Below, piece after piece: positions 1 to 51,312 of a stretch of 64,000 nt of DNA. A model generated the notes under the pieces. That model was not told the origin of the DNA. It did not search any database and saw nothing but the letters and a program-made list of their open reading frames with translations. The stretch lies in the IMG/VR virus record IMGVR_UViG_2537561979_000003; one strand, given 5' to 3'. Source of the stretch: a virus. Lineage: Duplodnaviria; Heunggongvirae; Uroviricota; Caudoviricetes. The position numbers and the translations under genes are program-made. Numbering within the stretch: position 1 is the stretch's first letter; every line of letters starts with the position of its first letter.

Positions 1-970
1 ACCCCGCGTTGATGTACTGCTGGAACGGCACATTTTTACGTCCACCGGACGCTATCAGGATGCCGTTCTCCCGTAACCAGACAAACAGCGCGTTTTGCTT
101 AAGTCCAACAACCTTTGCAAAATTCCCAATCAGGATCCCTTTAGCTACTGATACCCGGTCGGCAAAATCGACTTTAGGAGCGGCGGCCACCAGCTGCTGA
201 TTTAGCTGGTGGGCTTTCTGTTCCAGAAGCTGCTTTTGTTCAGCCAGTTCGGCAGCTAGGCGCAGAGCTTCTGGAAGCGTCTGGGGGATTGCAACCGGTT
301 GCTGTTCTTTTTGCCGGAAGTAGCTGTCTTCCAGTTTTTCAAAGAATGCCCATGCTTCATTTGTGTCCACGATCTTAGACATGCGTGCAGCGCCGCGCTC
401 TGTCCAGAGTGTAAGGCTTCTGGCGTTCTTACCAACAGAGTAACTTCCGGTTACTCTGTTCTTAAATTCTCTTAATTTTAAACCAGTTAGAAGAAAGTAA
501 TGCTTACCTTCTTCAAAGCGGTCAAGGTTGCGAGACAAATTGTTGCGAATATTGGCTTCATCGACCCCATACCCTCTAGCAAGAGTTTCGGTTGTCACGA
601 CACGTACTCCCTGCCATTCCAGAACGGGAATTTCATCCGGCTGATTCTGAACAACCACCAGTTCCGATTCCTGAACTGAAGGTGCATAAATTTTTTCTGA
701 TTTAACGTTAGTTGCTTTCATTCTGTGTGCCTCCTTGCGTGCTTCGGCTGCGACGGTTGCGTAATTCAGATGCCCCTGTTCGAGCAGGTATTCGCGGATA
801 TCAGACAGCAGGATACGGTGAACCGCGTTCTTGTCCTTTCTCCGGTAAAGTTGTTTGGTGATCATGAAGTAGTTGGCAATAACGCCAGGTATATCCCTGG
901 TACTGATACAGGCAGTGTGCTGTTCAATTGCCTCGATCATCTCTTCACGGGTAACTAACGATGTTCTCAT
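1..970 (-). CDS. Antirepressor-like protein (KilA-C-type C-terminal domain), 3' end beyond window start
   Basis: Minus-strand ORF from ATG at 970 running off position 1 (absent from ORF track because incomplete); its C-terminal half is clearly similar to the 347-aa ORF 48917..49960; ATGA overlap with upstream small gene. Confidence 0.6.
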   Translation of the reverse strand, partial: MRTSLVTREEMIEAIEQHTACISTRDIPGVIANYFMITKQLYRRKDKNAVHRILLSDIREYLLEQGHLNYATVAAEARKEAHRMKATNVKSEKIYAPSVQESELVVVQNQPDEIPVLEWQGVRVVTTETLARGYGVDEANIRNNLSRNLDRFEEGKHYFLLTGLKLREFKNRVTGSYSVGKNARSLTLWTERGAARMSKIVDTNEAWAFFEKLEDSYFRQKEQQPVAIPQTLPEALRLAAELAEQKQLLEQKAHQLNQQLVAAAPKVDFADRVSVAKGILIGNFAKVVGLKQNALFVWLRENGILIASGGRKNVPFQQYINAG

Positions 971-1188
971 AGTCCCTCCTGAGCAGAAGCGTTAACAGGG
1001 AGGCACCAGTAACTGAGAGAATTGCGTGAATCAGTGGAAAAACGGGCAGAGAAAATACATGGGGCGTCAGGAAGCTGAGAACGTGCCTCATCTTCTGTCG
1101 GTGCAATAACGAAGTGATAGTGACGTTTTTGGCAGGAGTAAAAGCGCCAGATAAATTCAGGATGAGCAGGGGTAGGGATAGTAGCCAC
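967..1188 (-). CDS. Icd-like small protein (73 aa), paralog of 49957..50178
   Basis: Shares FIWRFYSC..HYHFVIA.TEDEARSQLPD..CIF.ARFST.SRNSLSYW with the ORF preceding the second antirepressor gene; same gene order. Confidence 0.45.
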   Translation of the reverse strand: MATIPTPAHPEFIWRFYSCQKRHYHFVIAPTEDEARSQLPDAPCIFSARFSTDSRNSLSYWCLPVNASAQEGL

Positions 1189-1527
1189 AATGGCAGCCTC
1201 CTTTTGCTAATTTAAGGAGCTACCGCGTGAGGTCTCAATCTCAATGGCGGTAGCACTGACTGGGTTGAGACTACCGGCGCAAAAGGGAACCGGCCTGCCT
1301 TTCGGCAGCCCAGCCAGCACTACCATTGATCTCTGAGCTAAACGCTACGTATGGCTGTGCGATGGCATGACACAAAAAAAGACGCTTTTGGCGTCTGTGT
1401 CGCCTTTTGCATTATCCGGGGTCTCAATCCCGGCACCCGTTTTAATGAGGTGCCTGATAAGCATAAACCGAAAATGCCTCAAGGCGCAAGAGGTCAGGTT
1501 CAATGTAACATCGGCAGTTAAAAAACA

Positions 1528-1544
1528 CAATTTATTAGAGCAAA
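1528..1544 (-). promoter_or_regulatory. C1-repressor-operator-like 17-mer (15/17 to ATTGCTCTAATAAATTT)
   Basis: Sits 3 nt after pacB stop and upstream of the icd/ant-like leader. Confidence 0.5.
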
Positions 1545-1547
1545 TAT

Positions 1548-3032
1548 TCATTCATTAAGCCATGCCAGAGCTTCATCAACCTGCGCTTCGTCTTCGACGC
1601 TAAGCACTTCATCCTGGGGAACATAATCCGCCAGCATAGCGAAACAATATGTATCCCAATGGTCTGGTGAGTGCAGGTTGAGTTTTTTCTTCATATCCTC
1701 CTTACTCATCACCTTCCATTGACCTGCGGAGTTAATCCCTACAGGGATTTTCGACGCTTCCTCAATAGTTTCATTACCCTTATCCAGTCTCATACGACCA
1801 GATTTTACGGCCTCTGCGGCTTGAACGTTGGCATAAGCACGTTTATCAAAGTACAGGCTCTTATCTTCACGGCTATGCATCTTTTTACCCCAGCGTATAC
1901 GCTGTACGGTAATACCATAATACTCGTACATCAGATCCGCCGTTGCTTTACCCAGGCCATCGCCGTCTATCGCTATGGTGATATTGGGGAATCGCTCAGG
2001 ATTACATTCTGCGAAAATTTTGGCGGCAAGCTGCGTTTCTGTAACGTCTGTGTATTCCAGCATTCGATAGTTGATTACACGGCGTTTATTTCTCTGGCCG
2101 GACACCATCATGATATTGATAACGGACTTATCCCTTCCCGTGCCACCAGCAACGTCCACACATGCAAGCCAGCCCCATCCTTTGGCAATCTTGACTTTCC
2201 GCCGCGTTGCGCGTTCAACCTCATCACGTCCAAGAAGGAAGCCATCCTGTGATTTAGGGAATAGGCCGCGTACCTTAATCATGTACATAGGGTTATCACG
2301 CCCACCGTACTCCGCCAGCTTCATTTTGATAAATGCTGGCGTTACCAACGGTGATTCCTCACTGTTAAGCGTGATCGCCGTATAAACGCCATCAGGGTTA
2401 CCAGGACGCTTGGCCAGTTTATGGTGTGTATCGTAGAAATAGCCGCTTGGGCGTGTAGGCTGTGACAGCAATAAGATGCGGTTATCCTGTCCGGTAAGAG
2501 CACCGGTGATGATACCGAAAGCTCTATCACTGACACCGGAGGCTTCATCGATAATATACAGAAGATGATCTGCGTGTTCACCGGCGAGAGCTTCTTCACT
2601 TCCCAGACGAAAGCCCTTCGGTACTACAGTCCATACACCTTTACCAGTAACCTCATAGAAAGCGGTTTCTGTCAGAACAAAATAATCAGCAAGCCATGGA
2701 AAACGGCTGGTGGCAGTAGCCCAGTTTATCTTGATGTACTTGAATATACCGGTCATTACCTGCTGAATTTTGTTCGCAACGATAATGGCTCGGGCACCGG
2801 GATACATGATTATGAACAACATGATCATGATAGAAGTCATGTCTGATTTCCCGGTACCATGACCAGACGAAACAGATGTCTTGCTACCCTGTTCCTGCAC
2901 AGACTCAATAATCAGATCCTGCTGCCAGGTAGGTGTTTTGCCGAACAAAACATCAGCGGCCGCAATCCAGTCATAACGATATAGCGCCACCAGCTCGCGC
3001 CAACGTGGATCCGTTACGCAACTTCTGGCCAT
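1548..3032 (-). CDS. pacB: Terminase large subunit (P1 PacB-like, 494 aa)
   Basis: 494-aa ORF with GHGTGKS P-loop, start overlaps stop of upstream terminase-small gene; size and context match P1 PacB. Confidence 0.85.
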
Positions 3033-4225
3033 TAATCATCATCCCCGTATAGCTTGCGGGTAACTTCTTCGTCTTCCTCCTCGTCTTCGTCCAGGTCTTG
3101 TTCCAGCCATGGGTCGTTTGATACACCTTCAGTATCAACATCTCCATAACCGCCTGTATCAACGATATCGGCGATTTCTTCCCTACGCTGCTCAATCCAC
3201 AATGCGGCATCGGCGCGGCGGTTGGCGGCCCGTTCTCGCGCAACTTTGTCCAGATCTTCAAGAGAAGGGCCACCGACGGCTGTTTGCCTTTCCTCATCAT
3301 CGGTATTGGTCTTAGGAGCACGCAGATCGGCTTTGATTTGCTCCAGCATCAGGGGCGGAACTTTCCCGCCATGCGCCTCGATGAATTCAGCTGCTTCCAG
3401 CACTGACCAGTTATTTTCACGCTTTCGTTCGTATGCCAGTTTAACAATGCCAGCTTGCCCCATAGACAAAGCGTGCTTTTCCGCCTCCCGGCTTTCTTTT
3501 CGATAGTTATTCCGGATGCTGTAAATGGTGTTGATCAGGCTGCTTATCTGCGCGGAACAGCTGTTTAGCATGCTCGCGATACGGTATTCAGGCGGAGTTC
3601 CTTCATCATCGTCTTTTTGCTGATCGCGCATTTCCTGAACCAAGCGAATACACGTATCCCTGGCGTTCTCCAGCATAAGGAGATGAGAGAGAGACTTTTC
3701 CAGAAGAGTGGTTTCCAGAACATCAGCCCCGGACCGACGCAACATAGCGCGCGCGGCCTTCCGCGCTTCAACGTTATCTATCAGGTAATCGCCAGCTTCG
3801 AATTCAAAGCGTTCACCATCATCATCCAGGGTGTCGCGTTCCAGGCGATCACGTAAGGTCCGGTGGGCGCGGGTGATCACGTCATGATCATCAGAACGAT
3901 CATTTATGCGCTTATTCTGGCGCTTCGCGTTCTCGACTGCGGCACTGACAACAGCATTAACTCTTTGTTTTTCAGCCATTTCAGCCACAACGTGATCACC
4001 TGCACGTTGATCATTAGCGTGATCAATGATCATGCTTTTTAGTGGTTTTCTGACAGGCTTATTTGGCTTACGGCTGTCCGCTGTTCCGGTGTCTTCTTTG
4101 AATGCACGGAGATAACGACGTGCGGTGTTTGGGTTGAGATTAAACTCGGCGGCATATTGTGCGATGGTGTAACCACCATCTCGCGCCAGGCGAGCAAAAT
4201 TCTTCTTGTGATCGTCCCAGGTCAC
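3032..4225 (-). CDS. pacA: Terminase small/pac-recognition subunit (P1 PacA-like, 397 aa)
   Basis: 397-aa ORF, N-terminal HTH-like region, acidic C-terminus, contains the hexamer-repeat pac site, translationally coupled to pacB. Confidence 0.75.
3873..4033. other. pac packaging site: two clusters of TGATCA/G hexamers (3 + 4) containing GATC sites
   Basis: tgatca at 3873, 3884, (c)gatca 3897 and tgatca at 3993, 4009, 4019, 4028, inside the 5' part of pacA. Confidence 0.6.
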
Positions 4226-4311: not shown

Positions 4312-4764
4312 TCAGATACGTGCGGATGTGGCATTACCGTAATGACGGTGCTGACGGGCCACCTTATTGAAAAGTTGACGCGCCATTACCCAAGGCTGGT
4401 GCTCCCGGCGTTCCTTTTCGTCCTGCGTCATATAGAGTTCGTTCTGGAGTTTTTCATCAAACCGGCGCGGAGCGCGACTGCGGCGAAAGAATTCAGGATT
4501 CAGAGAGTGGATCTGAAATCTACGTGGGCGTGTACTGTCATCAATCAAAACAGACGAATACTTAGACACAGCGATAGCCTTTAAGCGCAGATAAACATCG
4601 CGCTTATCGACATCCAGATGCGGGTATTCCTTTTCAAGAATTGCTGCGAGTTCTTTCGCTGATAGAAGAGATTTAGTGCGGATCATGTAATCCGCAATCT
4701 CGTACGATGTTATTCGTGAGTGATTTATTTCCATGAAGTGGCGTCCCTGCCAGTTAAGTAACAT
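4312..4764 (-). CDS. Late-promoter-activator-like protein (Lpa/gp10 position), 150 aa
   Basis: Assigned by position directly upstream of pacA and by an operator-like site upstream; no motif evidence. Confidence 0.35.
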   Translation of the reverse strand: MLLNWQGRHFMEINHSRITSYEIADYMIRTKSLLSAKELAAILEKEYPHLDVDKRDVYLRLKAIAVSKYSSVLIDDSTRPRRFQIHSLNPEFFRRSRAPRRFDEKLQNELYMTQDEKERREHQPWVMARQLFNKVARQHRHYGNATSARI

Positions 4765-4834: not shown

Positions 4835-4851
4835 CAATACATTAGAGCAAT
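4835..4851 (-). promoter_or_regulatory. C1-operator-like 17-mer (14/17)
   Basis: ATTGCTCTAATGTATTG on minus strand, between 347-aa gene stop and the Lpa-like gene. Confidence 0.4.
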
Positions 4852-48916: not shown

Positions 48917-49960
48917 TTAACCTATTGCTACTGGTTTTAACAAACCAGCATCAAGTAGCTTGCGAGTTAACCACTGCTGGCCTTTACCCGTTAATTGGGG
49001 CGTCAGCCGTATCTGGTAGCCATTTTCATCATCCAGCACCACTTCTTTCACCGTGAAATACCCCGCGTTGATGTACTGTTGGCGCGGTACGTTTTTGCGC
49101 GCTCCAAAAGCCATGAGAATGCCATTCTGGCGCAACCATGAGAAAAGGGCGTTTTGCTTAAGTCCAACAACCTTTGCAAAGTTCCCGATCAGGATTCCAT
49201 TGGCCACTGATACCCGGTCGGCAAAATCGACTTTAGGGGCTGCGGCCACCAGCTGTTGTTCCAACTGCATTTTCTGTTCTGCTAACTCGGCAGCCAGGCG
49301 TAGGGCTTCTGGTAATGTCTGGGGGATCGATGGGGTAGGGGAGTTTGCCTGCTGTAATTCTTCCAGTTTGTCGATCAGCGAACGGCGGACCGCTTTTGAC
49401 TCGCGCGCGGCGACTCGCAGGGCTTGTTTGTAGGTCATGGTTATGACAACCATAGGCGTACCGCCACCTGGCGGCACGGTTGCACTTTTTGTGTAACCGT
49501 CCTCACCTTCTAATTCGTCGAGTATTTTTTCGATGAATTTGTTGTTCCGAACCTCTGGTTCCCCACATAACTTACGCGCTTCATTGACCATCTTTAACAG
49601 TGTCTGGCTGTCGATTGTGTCTCCAGTGTTGGAGATAACATTCACAGCTGGTGATGGCGTAGCTGAAGCAACAGGTGCTGGTTTTTCAGCATTCAAATTA
49701 TTACCGGTCATTCTGCGTGCCTCCTTTCTCATTTCTGCTGCCACCGTTGCGTAACGTAGACGTCCTTGTTCAATCAAATAATCCCTGATCTCGGCTATCA
49801 GTAGCCTGTTGATCACAGCCTTATCTGTTCGGGTATAAAAACGTCTGGTTATCATGAAATAGTTGGCAATTGCGCCGGGGATCTCCCGTGTCGGCATACA
49901 GGTTGTATGCAGGGCGATCGCTTCGGCTATTTCATTACGGGTGACGAGAGGTTTTTTCAT
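48917..49960 (-). CDS. Antirepressor (Ant-like; N-terminal domain + KilA-C), 347 aa
   Basis: Coupled to icd-like gene (ATGA overlap); C-terminal KilA-C domain. Confidence 0.7.
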   Translation of the reverse strand: MKKPLVTRNEIAEAIALHTTCMPTREIPGAIANYFMITRRFYTRTDKAVINRLLIAEIRDYLIEQGRLRYATVAAEMRKEARRMTGNNLNAEKPAPVASATPSPAVNVISNTGDTIDSQTLLKMVNEARKLCGEPEVRNNKFIEKILDELEGEDGYTKSATVPPGGGTPMVVITMTYKQALRVAARESKAVRRSLIDKLEELQQANSPTPSIPQTLPEALRLAAELAEQKMQLEQQLVAAAPKVDFADRVSVANGILIGNFAKVVGLKQNALFSWLRQNGILMAFGARKNVPRQQYINAGYFTVKEVVLDDENGYQIRLTPQLTGKGQQWLTRKLLDAGLLKPVAIG

Positions 49961-50178
49961 AAATCCCCCTGAACGTCGGCAGAGAAGGGGAGGTTCCAGT
50001 AACTAAGTGAATTGCGCGAGTTAGTTGAAAAACGGGCAGTAAAAATGCAGGGGCCATCAGGCAATTGAGAGCGTGCTTCGTCTTCTGTTGCTGCGATGAC
50101 GAAGTGATAGTGGTGTTTTTTACAGGAATAGAAACGCCAGATGAATTCTTGGCGTGCGCAAGGATTGGCATTAACCAT
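49957..50178 (-). CDS. Icd-like small protein, 73 aa
   Basis: Paralog of 967..1188; precedes ant. Confidence 0.45.
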   Translation of the reverse strand: MVNANPCARQEFIWRFYSCKKHHYHFVIAATEDEARSQLPDGPCIFTARFSTNSRNSLSYWNLPFSADVQGDL

Positions 50179-50179
50179 A

Positions 50180-50490
50180 GTTACGGCCTCACAATCAGGT
50201 TTAACAACCTGCTACCCGCTGCTAAACAGGTGGCAGGACGTGACGGGGTTAGCAGACTGGCGATTGTGAAACCAGCAGGCCGAAGCCTCCCCATCACGCC
50301 CCACCATAATTTGGGCGTAACGCGGTTTTACGGACACAAAAATACCGCAATATCGGATATCTGCGGCTGTCCGCACAATCATTCAGGCTGCTAAACCCGG
50401 TCGCAGAATTTGCTACGACGGCGAAACTATAAGCCTGAACGATTAAAAGGTCAATATGATGCGAAAAGATAGCATTCGCGACTTAAAAAT
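50180..50490 (-). ncRNA. Candidate c4-type antisense-RNA leader of the icd-ant operon
   Basis: 310-nt untranslated leader between operator-like site and icd; assignment by P1 analogy only. Confidence 0.25.
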
Positions 50491-50493
50491 ACA

Positions 50494-50510
50494 AATTTAT
50501 TAGAGCAGGT
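50494..50510 (-). promoter_or_regulatory. C1-operator-like 17-mer (15/17)
   Basis: CCTGCTCTAATAAATTT on minus strand upstream of leader. Confidence 0.5.
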
Positions 50511-50799
50511 GAGTGTCGTGCAATAGATGTATTATTTGTGATGAAAAATAATGCAGAGGGATATTGTTACTTTAAGATGGATATCAATAGTCGATACATA
50601 AATTAAGTTAGCAATAAACTATTAACTTAAGAAATAATGCAGATGGTGAACTTATCTCTGACTTTTCAGCTATACACAATAAGTTAGGGATAGCTTATAA
50701 AAAGTTGATTATTTGATATAAGTCAATGGGAGTATTCTTGTTTACTTTCCGTTCTCGTGGTAACTTCTCGCCGGTTTTTGTTTTTCTGGGATGATTCTT

Positions 50800-51312
50800 A
50801 TGTCTAAAAAGTATACTTTATGCGCTCTTGTTGTATCTGCAATTCTTCTTTCTGGGTGTCAATCTAGCGGTGCTGATTATGCTGCCGATGTTTATGATAC
50901 CGCTCAATTGAATTCGAAGCAGGAAACAAAGACAGTCAATATTATCTCTGTGCTTCCTGCTAAAGTGAAAGTTGATAATAAAGCTAATAAAGAAGCGGCA
51001 CAGACATTTGGTGCGGTACTGGGAGCTGTTGCTGGGGGCGTTGCCGGTTATAATGTTAAAGGCACATCGACACTGGGTGCTGTAGCTGGCGGTACTGGTG
51101 GTGCGGCTCTTGGTGCAGCGGCTGGTTCTTTGGTTAGTGATAAAACAATTGTTGAAGGTGTTTCACTGACTTATAAAGAAGGAACTAAGGTGTTCACTTC
51201 AACTCAAGTTGGTAAAGCATGCCAGTTTACAACGGGGCTTGCTGTGCTTATTTCAACTAAAGATAATGAAACTCGAATTCAGCCAAATGCTACTTGTCCA
51301 GAAAAGAAATAA
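50800..51312 (+). CDS. Lipoprotein with glycine-zipper region
   Basis: Signal peptide + lipobox LLSGC; GAVLGAVAGGVAGY..GAVAGGTGGAALGAAAG. Confidence 0.6.
   Translation: MSKKYTLCALVVSAILLSGCQSSGADYAADVYDTAQLNSKQETKTVNIISVLPAKVKVDNKANKEAAQTFGAVLGAVAGGVAGYNVKGTSTLGAVAGGTGGAALGAAAGSLVSDKTIVEGVSLTYKEGTKVFTSTQVGKACQFTTGLAVLISTKDNETRIQPNATCPEKK

Follow-up and report, generated by a model that had tools for sequence, protein, structure and literature searches.

Genes and RNA elements between pacB and c1

The window analyzed here, a 64,000-nt stretch of the IMG/VR virus record IMGVR_UViG_2537561979_000003, belongs to a P1-like phage-plasmid and opens on a compact module made up of an operator-like site, two promoter-like sites, a leader RNA, a C4 antisense RNA gene, an icd-like gene and an antirepressor gene (ant). 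All of its parts lie on the minus strand within positions 2-1544, in the slot between pacB and c1, and on the evidence of their sequence they probably constitute a functional second immI-type operon, in addition to the canonical immI operon found near 49 kb in the same window. The elements of the slot module, from upstream to downstream and named (a1, b1, C4, a2, b2) after the definitions in the P1 GenBank record, are as follows.

1528..1544, minus strand: C1-operator-like site TTTGCTCTAATAAATTG, 4 nt past the pacB stop codon, 15/17 match to the consensus ATTGCTCTAATAAATTT
1502..1530, minus strand: promoter-like site, homolog of P1 P2c4 (former P51a), with -35 TTGTGT at 1525-1530, a 17-nt spacer and -10 TACATT at 1502-1507
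1460..1489, minus strand: promoter-like site, homolog of P1 P1c4 (former P51b), with -35 TTGCGC at 1484-1489, an 18-nt spacer and -10 TATGCT at 1460-1465
1375..1453, minus strand: IsrK / c4-a1b1-type leader RNA, 79 nt; Rfam isrK (RF01394), 59 bits, gathering score 50
1421-1427, minus strand: a1 UUGAGAC, in the loop of the second leader hairpin
1403-1410, minus strand: b1 GCAAAAGG, in the single-stranded part of the leader
1380-1396 (stem) plus U tract, minus strand: intrinsic terminator, from an independent terminator scan; hairpin of -12.1 kcal/mol
1243..1330, minus strand: C4 antisense RNA gene; Rfam RF01695, 75 bits, gathering score 45, full-length match (1-87 of 87)
1279-1286, minus strand: C4 b' loop CCUUUUGC of the second hairpin, complementary to b1/b2
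1265-1271, minus strand: C4 a' single strand GUCUCAA, complementary to a1/a2
1232-1238, minus strand: a2 UUGAGAC, part of the downstream C4 target within 1197..1238
1200-1207, minus strand: b2 GCAAAAGG, overlapping the icd Shine-Dalgarno sequence GGAGG at 1197-1201
967..1188, minus strand: icd-like gene, 73 amino acids (aa), GTG start; NCBIfam NF033153 (phage_ICD_like), 49.8 bits, cutoff 25; PHROG 1426
2..970, minus strand: ant (Ant1-type), cut by the window edge; start ATG at 970, 323 of 370 codons, open frame to base 2

The arrangement of C4 and its targets is the clearest signature of the module. A preliminary description, made from the letters of the sequence, had noticed a motif present twice in the leader together with a near-complement, and had read these as an antisense RNA and its targets. 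This reading stands: the decamer GGTCTCAATC is found in exactly two places (0.10 expected by chance), which correspond to a1 and a2, and the near-complement GTTGAGAC at 1264-1271 covers the a' element of C4, a gene identified by its Rfam match; at all three positions the comparative data described below show compensatory changes. The two copies are at 1231-1240 and 1420-1429, so that the positions first given, 1239 and 1427, were off by about 8 nt. The preliminary description had missed a second target pair, b1/b2, which extends over the icd Shine-Dalgarno sequence. Taken as a unit, the a+b pair is present at just two places in the 64 kb, one on either side of C4, where chance predicts 0, and the canonical module at 49 kb shows the same pattern with sequences of its own. 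Cognate loop-target duplexes have predicted energies of -12 to -15 kcal/mol, versus -7 to -10.5 kcal/mol for the sites of the other module; these values are for loop-only duplexes, since folding the whole C4-leader duplex ignores intramolecular structure and returns large and meaningless energies. By homology to the 77-nt C4 of P1, the mature RNA would span about 1246-1324 and has a predicted fold ending in a 3' ...GCCA; this tRNA-like end and an acceptor-like stem are visible in the sequence.

A 39-aa open reading frame (ORF) that PGAP calls an "ash family protein" (window 1207-1326, minus strand) lies wholly inside the C4 gene and is probably a mis-call over a conserved RNA. The peptide has no match among NCBIfam models, and its PHROG matches are confined to internal stretches of "transcriptional repressor/regulator" families. 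At the equivalent place in Gifsy-1 lies "orf45", which is reported as translated.

The leader, first put at ~350 nt, runs for about 340-355 nt between the operator-like site and the start of icd. Its first transcribed part (1375-1453) is laid out as a 5' hairpin, a second hairpin with a1 in its loop, a single-stranded b1 and an intrinsic terminator. The slot leader scores above the gathering score with the isrK model and below it with the c4-a1b1 model (RF03163; 22.3 bits versus 46.7), and each of the two models matches both leaders of the window, that of the slot and that of the 49-kb module. This suggests that the IsrK small RNA family and the a1b1 leader are one and the same structure, a link drawn from the Rfam model and the text of PMC4825925. 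The two leaders of the window are thus unlike in sequence, as the preliminary description had it, and alike in design.

Upstream of the leader, the operator-like site that had been proposed at the start of the window is TTTGCTCTAATAAATTG, with two mismatches to the P1 C1-operator consensus. Its core TGCTCTAATAAAT is intact; the site overlaps the -35 of the P2c4-homologous promoter-like site and aligns with P1 Oc4/Op51. Across the window, 11 C1-operator-like sites are seen with up to three mismatches, where 0.36 would be expected by chance. At the same threshold, the site is kept in 28/28 pacB-slot copies with enough upstream sequence, and most D6-type copies are without a P1-type operator-like site upstream. 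Both promoter-like sites align position by position with the promoters annotated in the P1 record, and the Rfam isrK match begins, at its position 1, where transcription from the P1c4-homologous promoter is predicted to start (near 1453). The ten other operator-like sites start at 4835, 14314, 16406, 16455, 20079, 30123, 30134, 33656, 48822 and 50493; the one at 30134-50 matches the consensus perfectly and overlaps an inverted partner at 30123-39. Such dispersed sites are as expected of a P1-type genome.

The icd-like ORF had also been correctly recognized. Its product shares 77% identity with the P7-type Icd encoded at 49 kb; the start codon is GTG here and ATG in many relatives. According to the annotation of the P1 record, Icd reversibly inhibits host cell division and translation of icd is needed for ant expression; in the slot, the icd stop overlaps the ant start as ATGA (967-970). 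Two ORFs annotated in the record of phage JL22 compete with this picture: gp121, an 81-aa ORF over icd (window 945-1190, minus strand; 4411-4656 of locus L001), is in the wrong frame, the true Icd being 967-1188, and gp120 (68 aa; window 1345-1551, minus strand; L001 4050-4256), which spans the operator-like site, both promoter-like sites and the leader RNA, is probably a mis-call.

The antirepressor-like gene is open from 970 to the window edge, and its full-length product counts 370 aa in a 99.8%-identical plasmid. The protein (slot Ant) belongs to PHROG 63 "anti-repressor Ant" (454 bits), as does the Ant1 of the 49-kb module, to which it is 56% identical overall. The preliminary description had proposed a different N-terminal domain. 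In fact the N-terminal extension (aa 1-93) is common to both, aligning without gaps at ~60% identity to the window's P7-type Ant1, and it is the central domain that differs: residues ~94-228 form an ORF6N domain (PF10543, E = 2.5e-18) in place of the P1-type one (~aa 94-215 of Ant1). This central part gives no meaningful alignment with the central domain of Ant1 and is not of the P1 type. From ~229 onward a KilAC domain follows (PF03374, E = 1.5e-31; the last ~145 aa), ~88% identical to that of Ant1. KilAC is shared by three paralogs in the window, as had been claimed: slot Ant, Ant1 of the 49-kb module and KilA. As for ant2 of the P1 record, there is an in-frame internal start (ATG 719-721, codon 84) preceded by a Shine-Dalgarno sequence, AAGGAGG, at 730-736.

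The ratio of nonsynonymous to synonymous substitution rates (dN/dS) comes to 0.11 in icd and to 0.27 over the whole of ant, whose N-terminal part has 0.07, ORF6N 0.33 and KilAC 0.03. By these ratios both genes are under purifying selection, and all of the complete copies of the module (35/35) are intact, which answers the concern that the first ORF might be a pseudogene beyond the window. The record of phage JL22 names the slot gene "Roi DNA binding protein". Natural chimeras exist in two IMG/VR contigs (L047 and L068), whose Ants of 469 and 462 aa carry a P1-type central domain and ORF6N in tandem, both lying between the common N- and C-termini. Outside the P1-like group, ORF6N antirepressors mostly come without a preceding C4, with one Methylobacter metagenome-assembled genome as the exception (GTDB relatives combined with an Rfam scan), so that these distant relatives added nothing to the covariation.

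Matched specificities and genomic distribution of the module

To sample variation of the module, IMG/VR was scanned using as anchor 23 nt of the first hairpin of C4, which yielded 71 loci and, with loci fetched earlier, 78 copies. Among these, two variants are seen of the a sites (UUGAGAC or UUGGAAC) and two of the b sites (GCAAAAGG or GUCAAAGG). The three a elements (a1, a' and a2) are concordant in 76/78 copies and the three b elements (b1, b' and b2) in 78/78. All four a x b combinations are present in the pacB-c1 slot, and the same four specificity types also circulate in D6-like elements. When 36 distinct leaders were aligned, nearly the sole variable columns were the six recognition dinucleotides. 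Across these sequences C4 pairs with a1/b1 in 99.8% of cells and with a2/b2 in 100%. In both structures, four pairs have changes on the two sides (56 cells per structure). The observed covariation score was matched by 0 of 500 shuffles, and in slid controls, with the partner moved by 1-3 columns, 29-57% of cells were paired, with no compensatory changes. The sequences are closely related, and the four types represent a few evolutionary events observed many times; read with this in mind, the covariation is strong evidence from sequence comparison for functional pairings and for several specificities at the locus. Two copies (L072 and L078) have an a1 of one type with C4 a' and a2 of the other, giving a recombinant-looking arrangement with a mismatched decoy site.

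The slot module can be compared with the canonical immI operon of the same window, which has P7 specificity:

48917..50509, minus strand: canonical immI operon
50493-50509, minus strand: operator (Op51-type)
50380-50432, minus strand: leader a1b1
50226-50311, minus strand: C4
49957-50178, minus strand: icd
48917-49960, minus strand: ant1

The C4 and targets of the canonical operon are identical to those of phage P7, not P1, and a lipoprotein-like ORF beside it (50791-51312, plus strand) occupies the position of P7 upf50.5. By blastn, only icd with the ant N-terminus (70%) and the KilAC part (76%) align between the two modules, and their leaders and central ant regions give no alignment. Alignment to the P1 and P7 c4 regions, which the preliminary description had suggested as a check, thus gave P7-type recognition sequences for the 49-kb module, and for the slot module sequences unrelated to either phage: in recognition sequence, its C4 and both pairs of targets are those of phage D6. 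Citron and Schuster reportedly found in 1990 that the sites of P1 and P7 differ by only two bases each and that the two phages are heteroimmune. Since the sites of the slot and of the 49-kb module differ far more than this, they should not cross-react, and from their sequences the D6-type C4 of the slot and the window's P7-type C4 are predicted not to do so. The idea that the two modules are independently controlled holds at the RNA level only, because both have a C1-operator-like site upstream.

The slot lies immediately downstream of the genes listed here, which serve as context:

1548..3032, minus strand: pacB (terminase subunit), the upstream neighbor
3032-4225, minus strand: pacA

Comparison of near-identical records with P1 shows that the 24-bp pacB-c1 spacer of P1 is swapped for 1,727 bp and that homology to P1 restarts exactly at the c1 stop codon. 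The continuation beyond the window edge could be followed in pEF45-2 and pEC21Z048-103K (99.8% identical), phage JL22 (97.8%) and phage RCS47 (94%), where the 370-aa ant gene is complete and is followed tail-to-tail by c1 and then coi. In a tblastn-based classification of contexts, ant was always tail-to-tail with c1 in slot copies. The C1 encoded beside the module departs from P1 C1 at residue 193 only; the P1 reference gene is labeled c1.100, according to its record a thermosensitive allele, and we take the neighboring C1 to be wild-type P1 C1. DNA identity to P1 is ~82% over pacA and pacB (window 1548-4225, minus strand, against locus L005) and 96.6% over c1-coi across the insert; as judged from sequence, the backbone around the slot is mosaic. 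The convergent ant and c1 genes lie 32 bp apart (L003 5246-5278, beyond the window); this gap contains a GC-rich hairpin of 8 bp, ATGCCCGG...CCGGGCAT, which may be a bidirectional terminator between them. Elsewhere in the window, Rfam finds three tRNA genes (27613-27685, 29316-29388 and 29394-29466, minus strand).

The junctions of the slot are present in 307 PLSDB plasmids, versus 314 with an empty P1-type junction, so that about half of the P1-like plasmids in PLSDB carry the module, which also occurs in 302/5,426 complete E. coli genomes.

Proposed regulation and competing explanations

In P1, C4 is excised from the operon transcript by RNase P and represses icd and ant in trans, and a complex of Ant1 and Ant2 binds and inactivates C1. 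By analogy, transcription of the slot module would start from two tandem promoters, of which the upstream one is overlapped by the C1-operator-like site and would be shut by C1 in the lysogen. The downstream promoter, weaker and without operator overlap, would give mostly terminated leader RNA and some read-through. The terminated transcript would be a roughly 79-nt IsrK-like RNA carrying the decoy sites a1 and b1, and C4 would be cut out of the read-through transcript, as it is by RNase P in P1. The C4 loop CCUUUUGC and single strand GUCUCAA would then pair with b2 and a2 upstream of icd, masking the icd ribosome-binding site, and since ant is translationally coupled to icd through ATGA, a block on icd would also keep Ant1/Ant2 off. 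In the absence of C1, or when target and decoy RNA exceed C4, Icd and Ant would be made and Ant would inactivate C1. The element would thus have an RNA "lock" on each of its two antirepressors, with C1 as a further control over both, and the two-layered or heteroimmune control suggested by the preliminary description is a reasonable expectation from P1/P7 biology. We infer promoter use, termination, processing, translational repression, the binding of slot Ant to C1 and the decoy role of the leader RNA from this analogy, whose template was the P1 record annotation, a summary of the P1 network (PMC8546580) and PMC4825925. What the sequences themselves establish is the anatomy of the module, its family matches, the complementarity of C4 and its targets, their three-way covariation, the purifying selection and the prevalence.

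Several observations weigh against this interpretation. A simple consensus promoter scan picked up neither promoter, the P2c4 homolog falling below its threshold, and the downstream (P1c4-homologous) promoter is a weak consensus match (8/12). In 2/78 copies a1 mismatches C4, suggesting that a1 is less constrained than a2. The central ORF6N domain of slot Ant is unlike the central domain of P1 Ant, and it comes in at least five allele classes (65-83% aa identity; dS 0.65, dN 0.22; for example L003 4133-5245 and relatives, ant codons ~94-228) between nearly invariant flanks. The C1 encoded beside the slot differs by at most two residues across these classes, so that this domain, at least, is not co-evolving with C1. 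The classes track neither C1 alleles nor C4 type and are shuffled relative to the latter. Finally, the same leader drives an unrelated, Rha-type antirepressor in D6, and the RNA cassette alone hence does not reveal the target of the protein it controls.

These points open the way to an account in which RNA control operates as proposed and the ORF6N-type Ant acts on another repressor, for example one from a lambdoid prophage or a D6-like plasmid, or works as a DNA-binding regulator of the Roi or Rha kind, the module mediating cross-talk with other resident elements instead of serving as a second anti-C1 switch. Besides the absence of ORF6N from P1 Ant and the diversity of this domain next to an invariant C1, such an account draws on the D6-like leader, C4 and 5' icd (86-95% identical), on the Roi label in the JL22 record and on AnrP from the homologous Gifsy-1 isrK locus, which induces a lambdoid prophage (PMC4825925). 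We nevertheless consider it unlikely: the N-terminal 93 aa and C-terminal 145 aa are common with P1/P7 Ant1 and have the low dN/dS values given above (0.07 and 0.03), the Ant2 internal start is conserved, ant is always tail-to-tail with c1, and the C1-operator-like site upstream is kept in every slot copy checked. The chimeric Ants with both central domains in one protein likewise suggest that ORF6N is an add-on to the Ant scaffold. A different emphasis would place the main selected function in C4 itself, which would act in trans against superinfecting phages (D6-type, or P1-like of the same type) by silencing their antirepressor operon, while icd-ant would be kept mostly as a cis context to make and balance C4. 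The identity of C4 and its targets with those of D6 fits this well, as does the concentration of variation exactly in the recognition nucleotides, in four matched types; such a pattern is expected of a specificity determinant under frequency-dependent selection, as in P1/P7 heteroimmunity. Yet neither icd nor ant is broken in any of the 35 complete copies, and purifying selection acts on both, which argues that they are not passengers, and while we find this emphasis somewhat doubtful, it is largely compatible with a second immI-type operon acting on C1.

Because the module lies at the window edge with a truncated gene, and a paralogous module is present in the same window, we also considered a decaying remnant or an assembly artefact, namely a mis-joined duplicate of the 49-kb immI. 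This is refuted, and its probability is negligible: the junctions recur in the PLSDB plasmids and complete E. coli genomes counted above, and in JL22 and RCS47, where c1-coi comes next; only two segments align with the 49-kb module, at 70-76% DNA identity; the ORFs are intact with dN/dS well below 1; and RNA pairing is kept by compensatory change.

We tentatively suggest, with more doubt than confidence, that the pacB-c1 slot is a polymorphic RNA-immunity locus, with at least four mutually orthogonal C4 specificities that it shares and exchanges with D6-like plasmids. Combined with the canonical immI (P1, P7 or other), it would make up a two-lock combinatorial heteroimmunity code, in which the leader acts as a C4-titrating decoy and ORF6N is aimed at a variable non-C1 target. 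If true, this code would determine which phage-plasmids, resident or co-infecting, can induce or shut out one another. In E. coli and Salmonella, resistance genes are frequently carried by P1-like phage-plasmids. Should the mechanism hold, lysogeny in about half of the PLSDB P1-like plasmids would be guarded by two non-cross-reacting antisense RNAs, and combinations of RNA specificities, beyond the P1/P7 dichotomy, would set the immunity groups of P1-like and D6-like plasmids, with a bearing on which elements coexist, induce each other and spread. The findings also tie the Salmonella IsrK small RNA to the a1b1 leader of C4 operons, which suggests one shared mechanism. They leave the known type of mechanism unchanged; their value lies in cataloguing and in directly testable predictions of two-lock combinatorial RNA immunity.

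Relation to known systems

The slot module is an uncharacterized paralog of a textbook system, widespread and already annotated, and not a new kind of mechanism. A second antirepressor module is mentioned briefly for RCS47 (Venturini et al., 2019), the paper on a D6-like plasmid notes a second c4-icd region, PGAP already names the slot Icd-like and Ant proteins, and C4 and isrK RNAs are annotated side by side in some Stx-phage records. In the searchable literature we found no account of the D6-type specificity of the slot, of its four matched types or of IsrK and the a1b1 leader being the same, although the D6 genome paper may cover some of these points.

The slot module is reminiscent of the immI operon of P1 and P7. 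The order of parts is the same (Op51 - P51a/b - a1 b1 - c4 - a2 b2 - icd - ant1/ant2), a C1-operator-like site lies over the upstream promoter, C4 belongs to the same Rfam family and b2 sits on the icd ribosome-binding site; the proteins agree as well, with a 73-aa Icd, an ATGA-coupled ant, the Ant1 extension, the Ant2 internal start and a KilAC C-terminus. It differs in its location, in the pacB-c1 spacer whereas the P1/P7 operon is at sim-kilA, in recognition sequences unrelated to those of P1 (UUGACAG / GUUAGUG) or P7 (UUAGCAG / GAUUGUG), in a stronger and more canonical leader terminator and in the ORF6N central domain of its Ant. With the c4-icd-orf82 locus of D6 (MF356679) and D6-like plasmids (pYU39_89), it shares an IsrK-type leader, C4 and both target pairs with the same recognition sequences, and identity is 86-95% between the leader and the 5' part of icd. 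Unlike in the slot, however, the gene downstream in D6 encodes a 313-aa Rha-type antirepressor, not an Ant1/KilAC protein, and the genomic neighborhood is another one. In Stx2 and other lambdoid phages, an isrK-C4 leader (~67-69% identical) stands ahead of Rha/antirepressor-type genes in many Stx-converting phages, and several Stx/lambdoid records have a "transcriptional regulator" coding sequence annotated over the isrK-C4 RNA region.

More distant parallels are found in Salmonella and in satellite phages. The isrK - orf45/STnc1160 - anrP locus of Gifsy-1 (PMC4825925) resembles the slot in that the slot leader matches isrK above the gathering score, in its terminated short RNA and in a read-through transcript giving a stable processed RNA that is complementary to IsrK, followed by an antirepressor coupled to an upstream ORF. 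It differs in being without icd, in that the coupling ORF, orf45, overlaps the C4-like RNA, and in an antirepressor that acts on a lambdoid repressor circuit. In the Gifsy-1 model IsrK activates translation in trans (Hershko-Shalev et al., 2016; PMC4825925), and it is for Salmonella IsrK only that the short RNA is described as accumulating, binding Hfq and activating translation of the downstream ORFs in this way (PMC4825925). In satellite P4, the CI antisense RNA is similarly processed from the leader of the operon that it controls and has sites on both sides, seqA and seqC (PMC4825925). By contrast with the translational repression proposed for C4 in the slot, CI causes premature transcription termination of the replication genes, no antirepressor is involved, and the RNA belongs to another family of a related Rfam clan.

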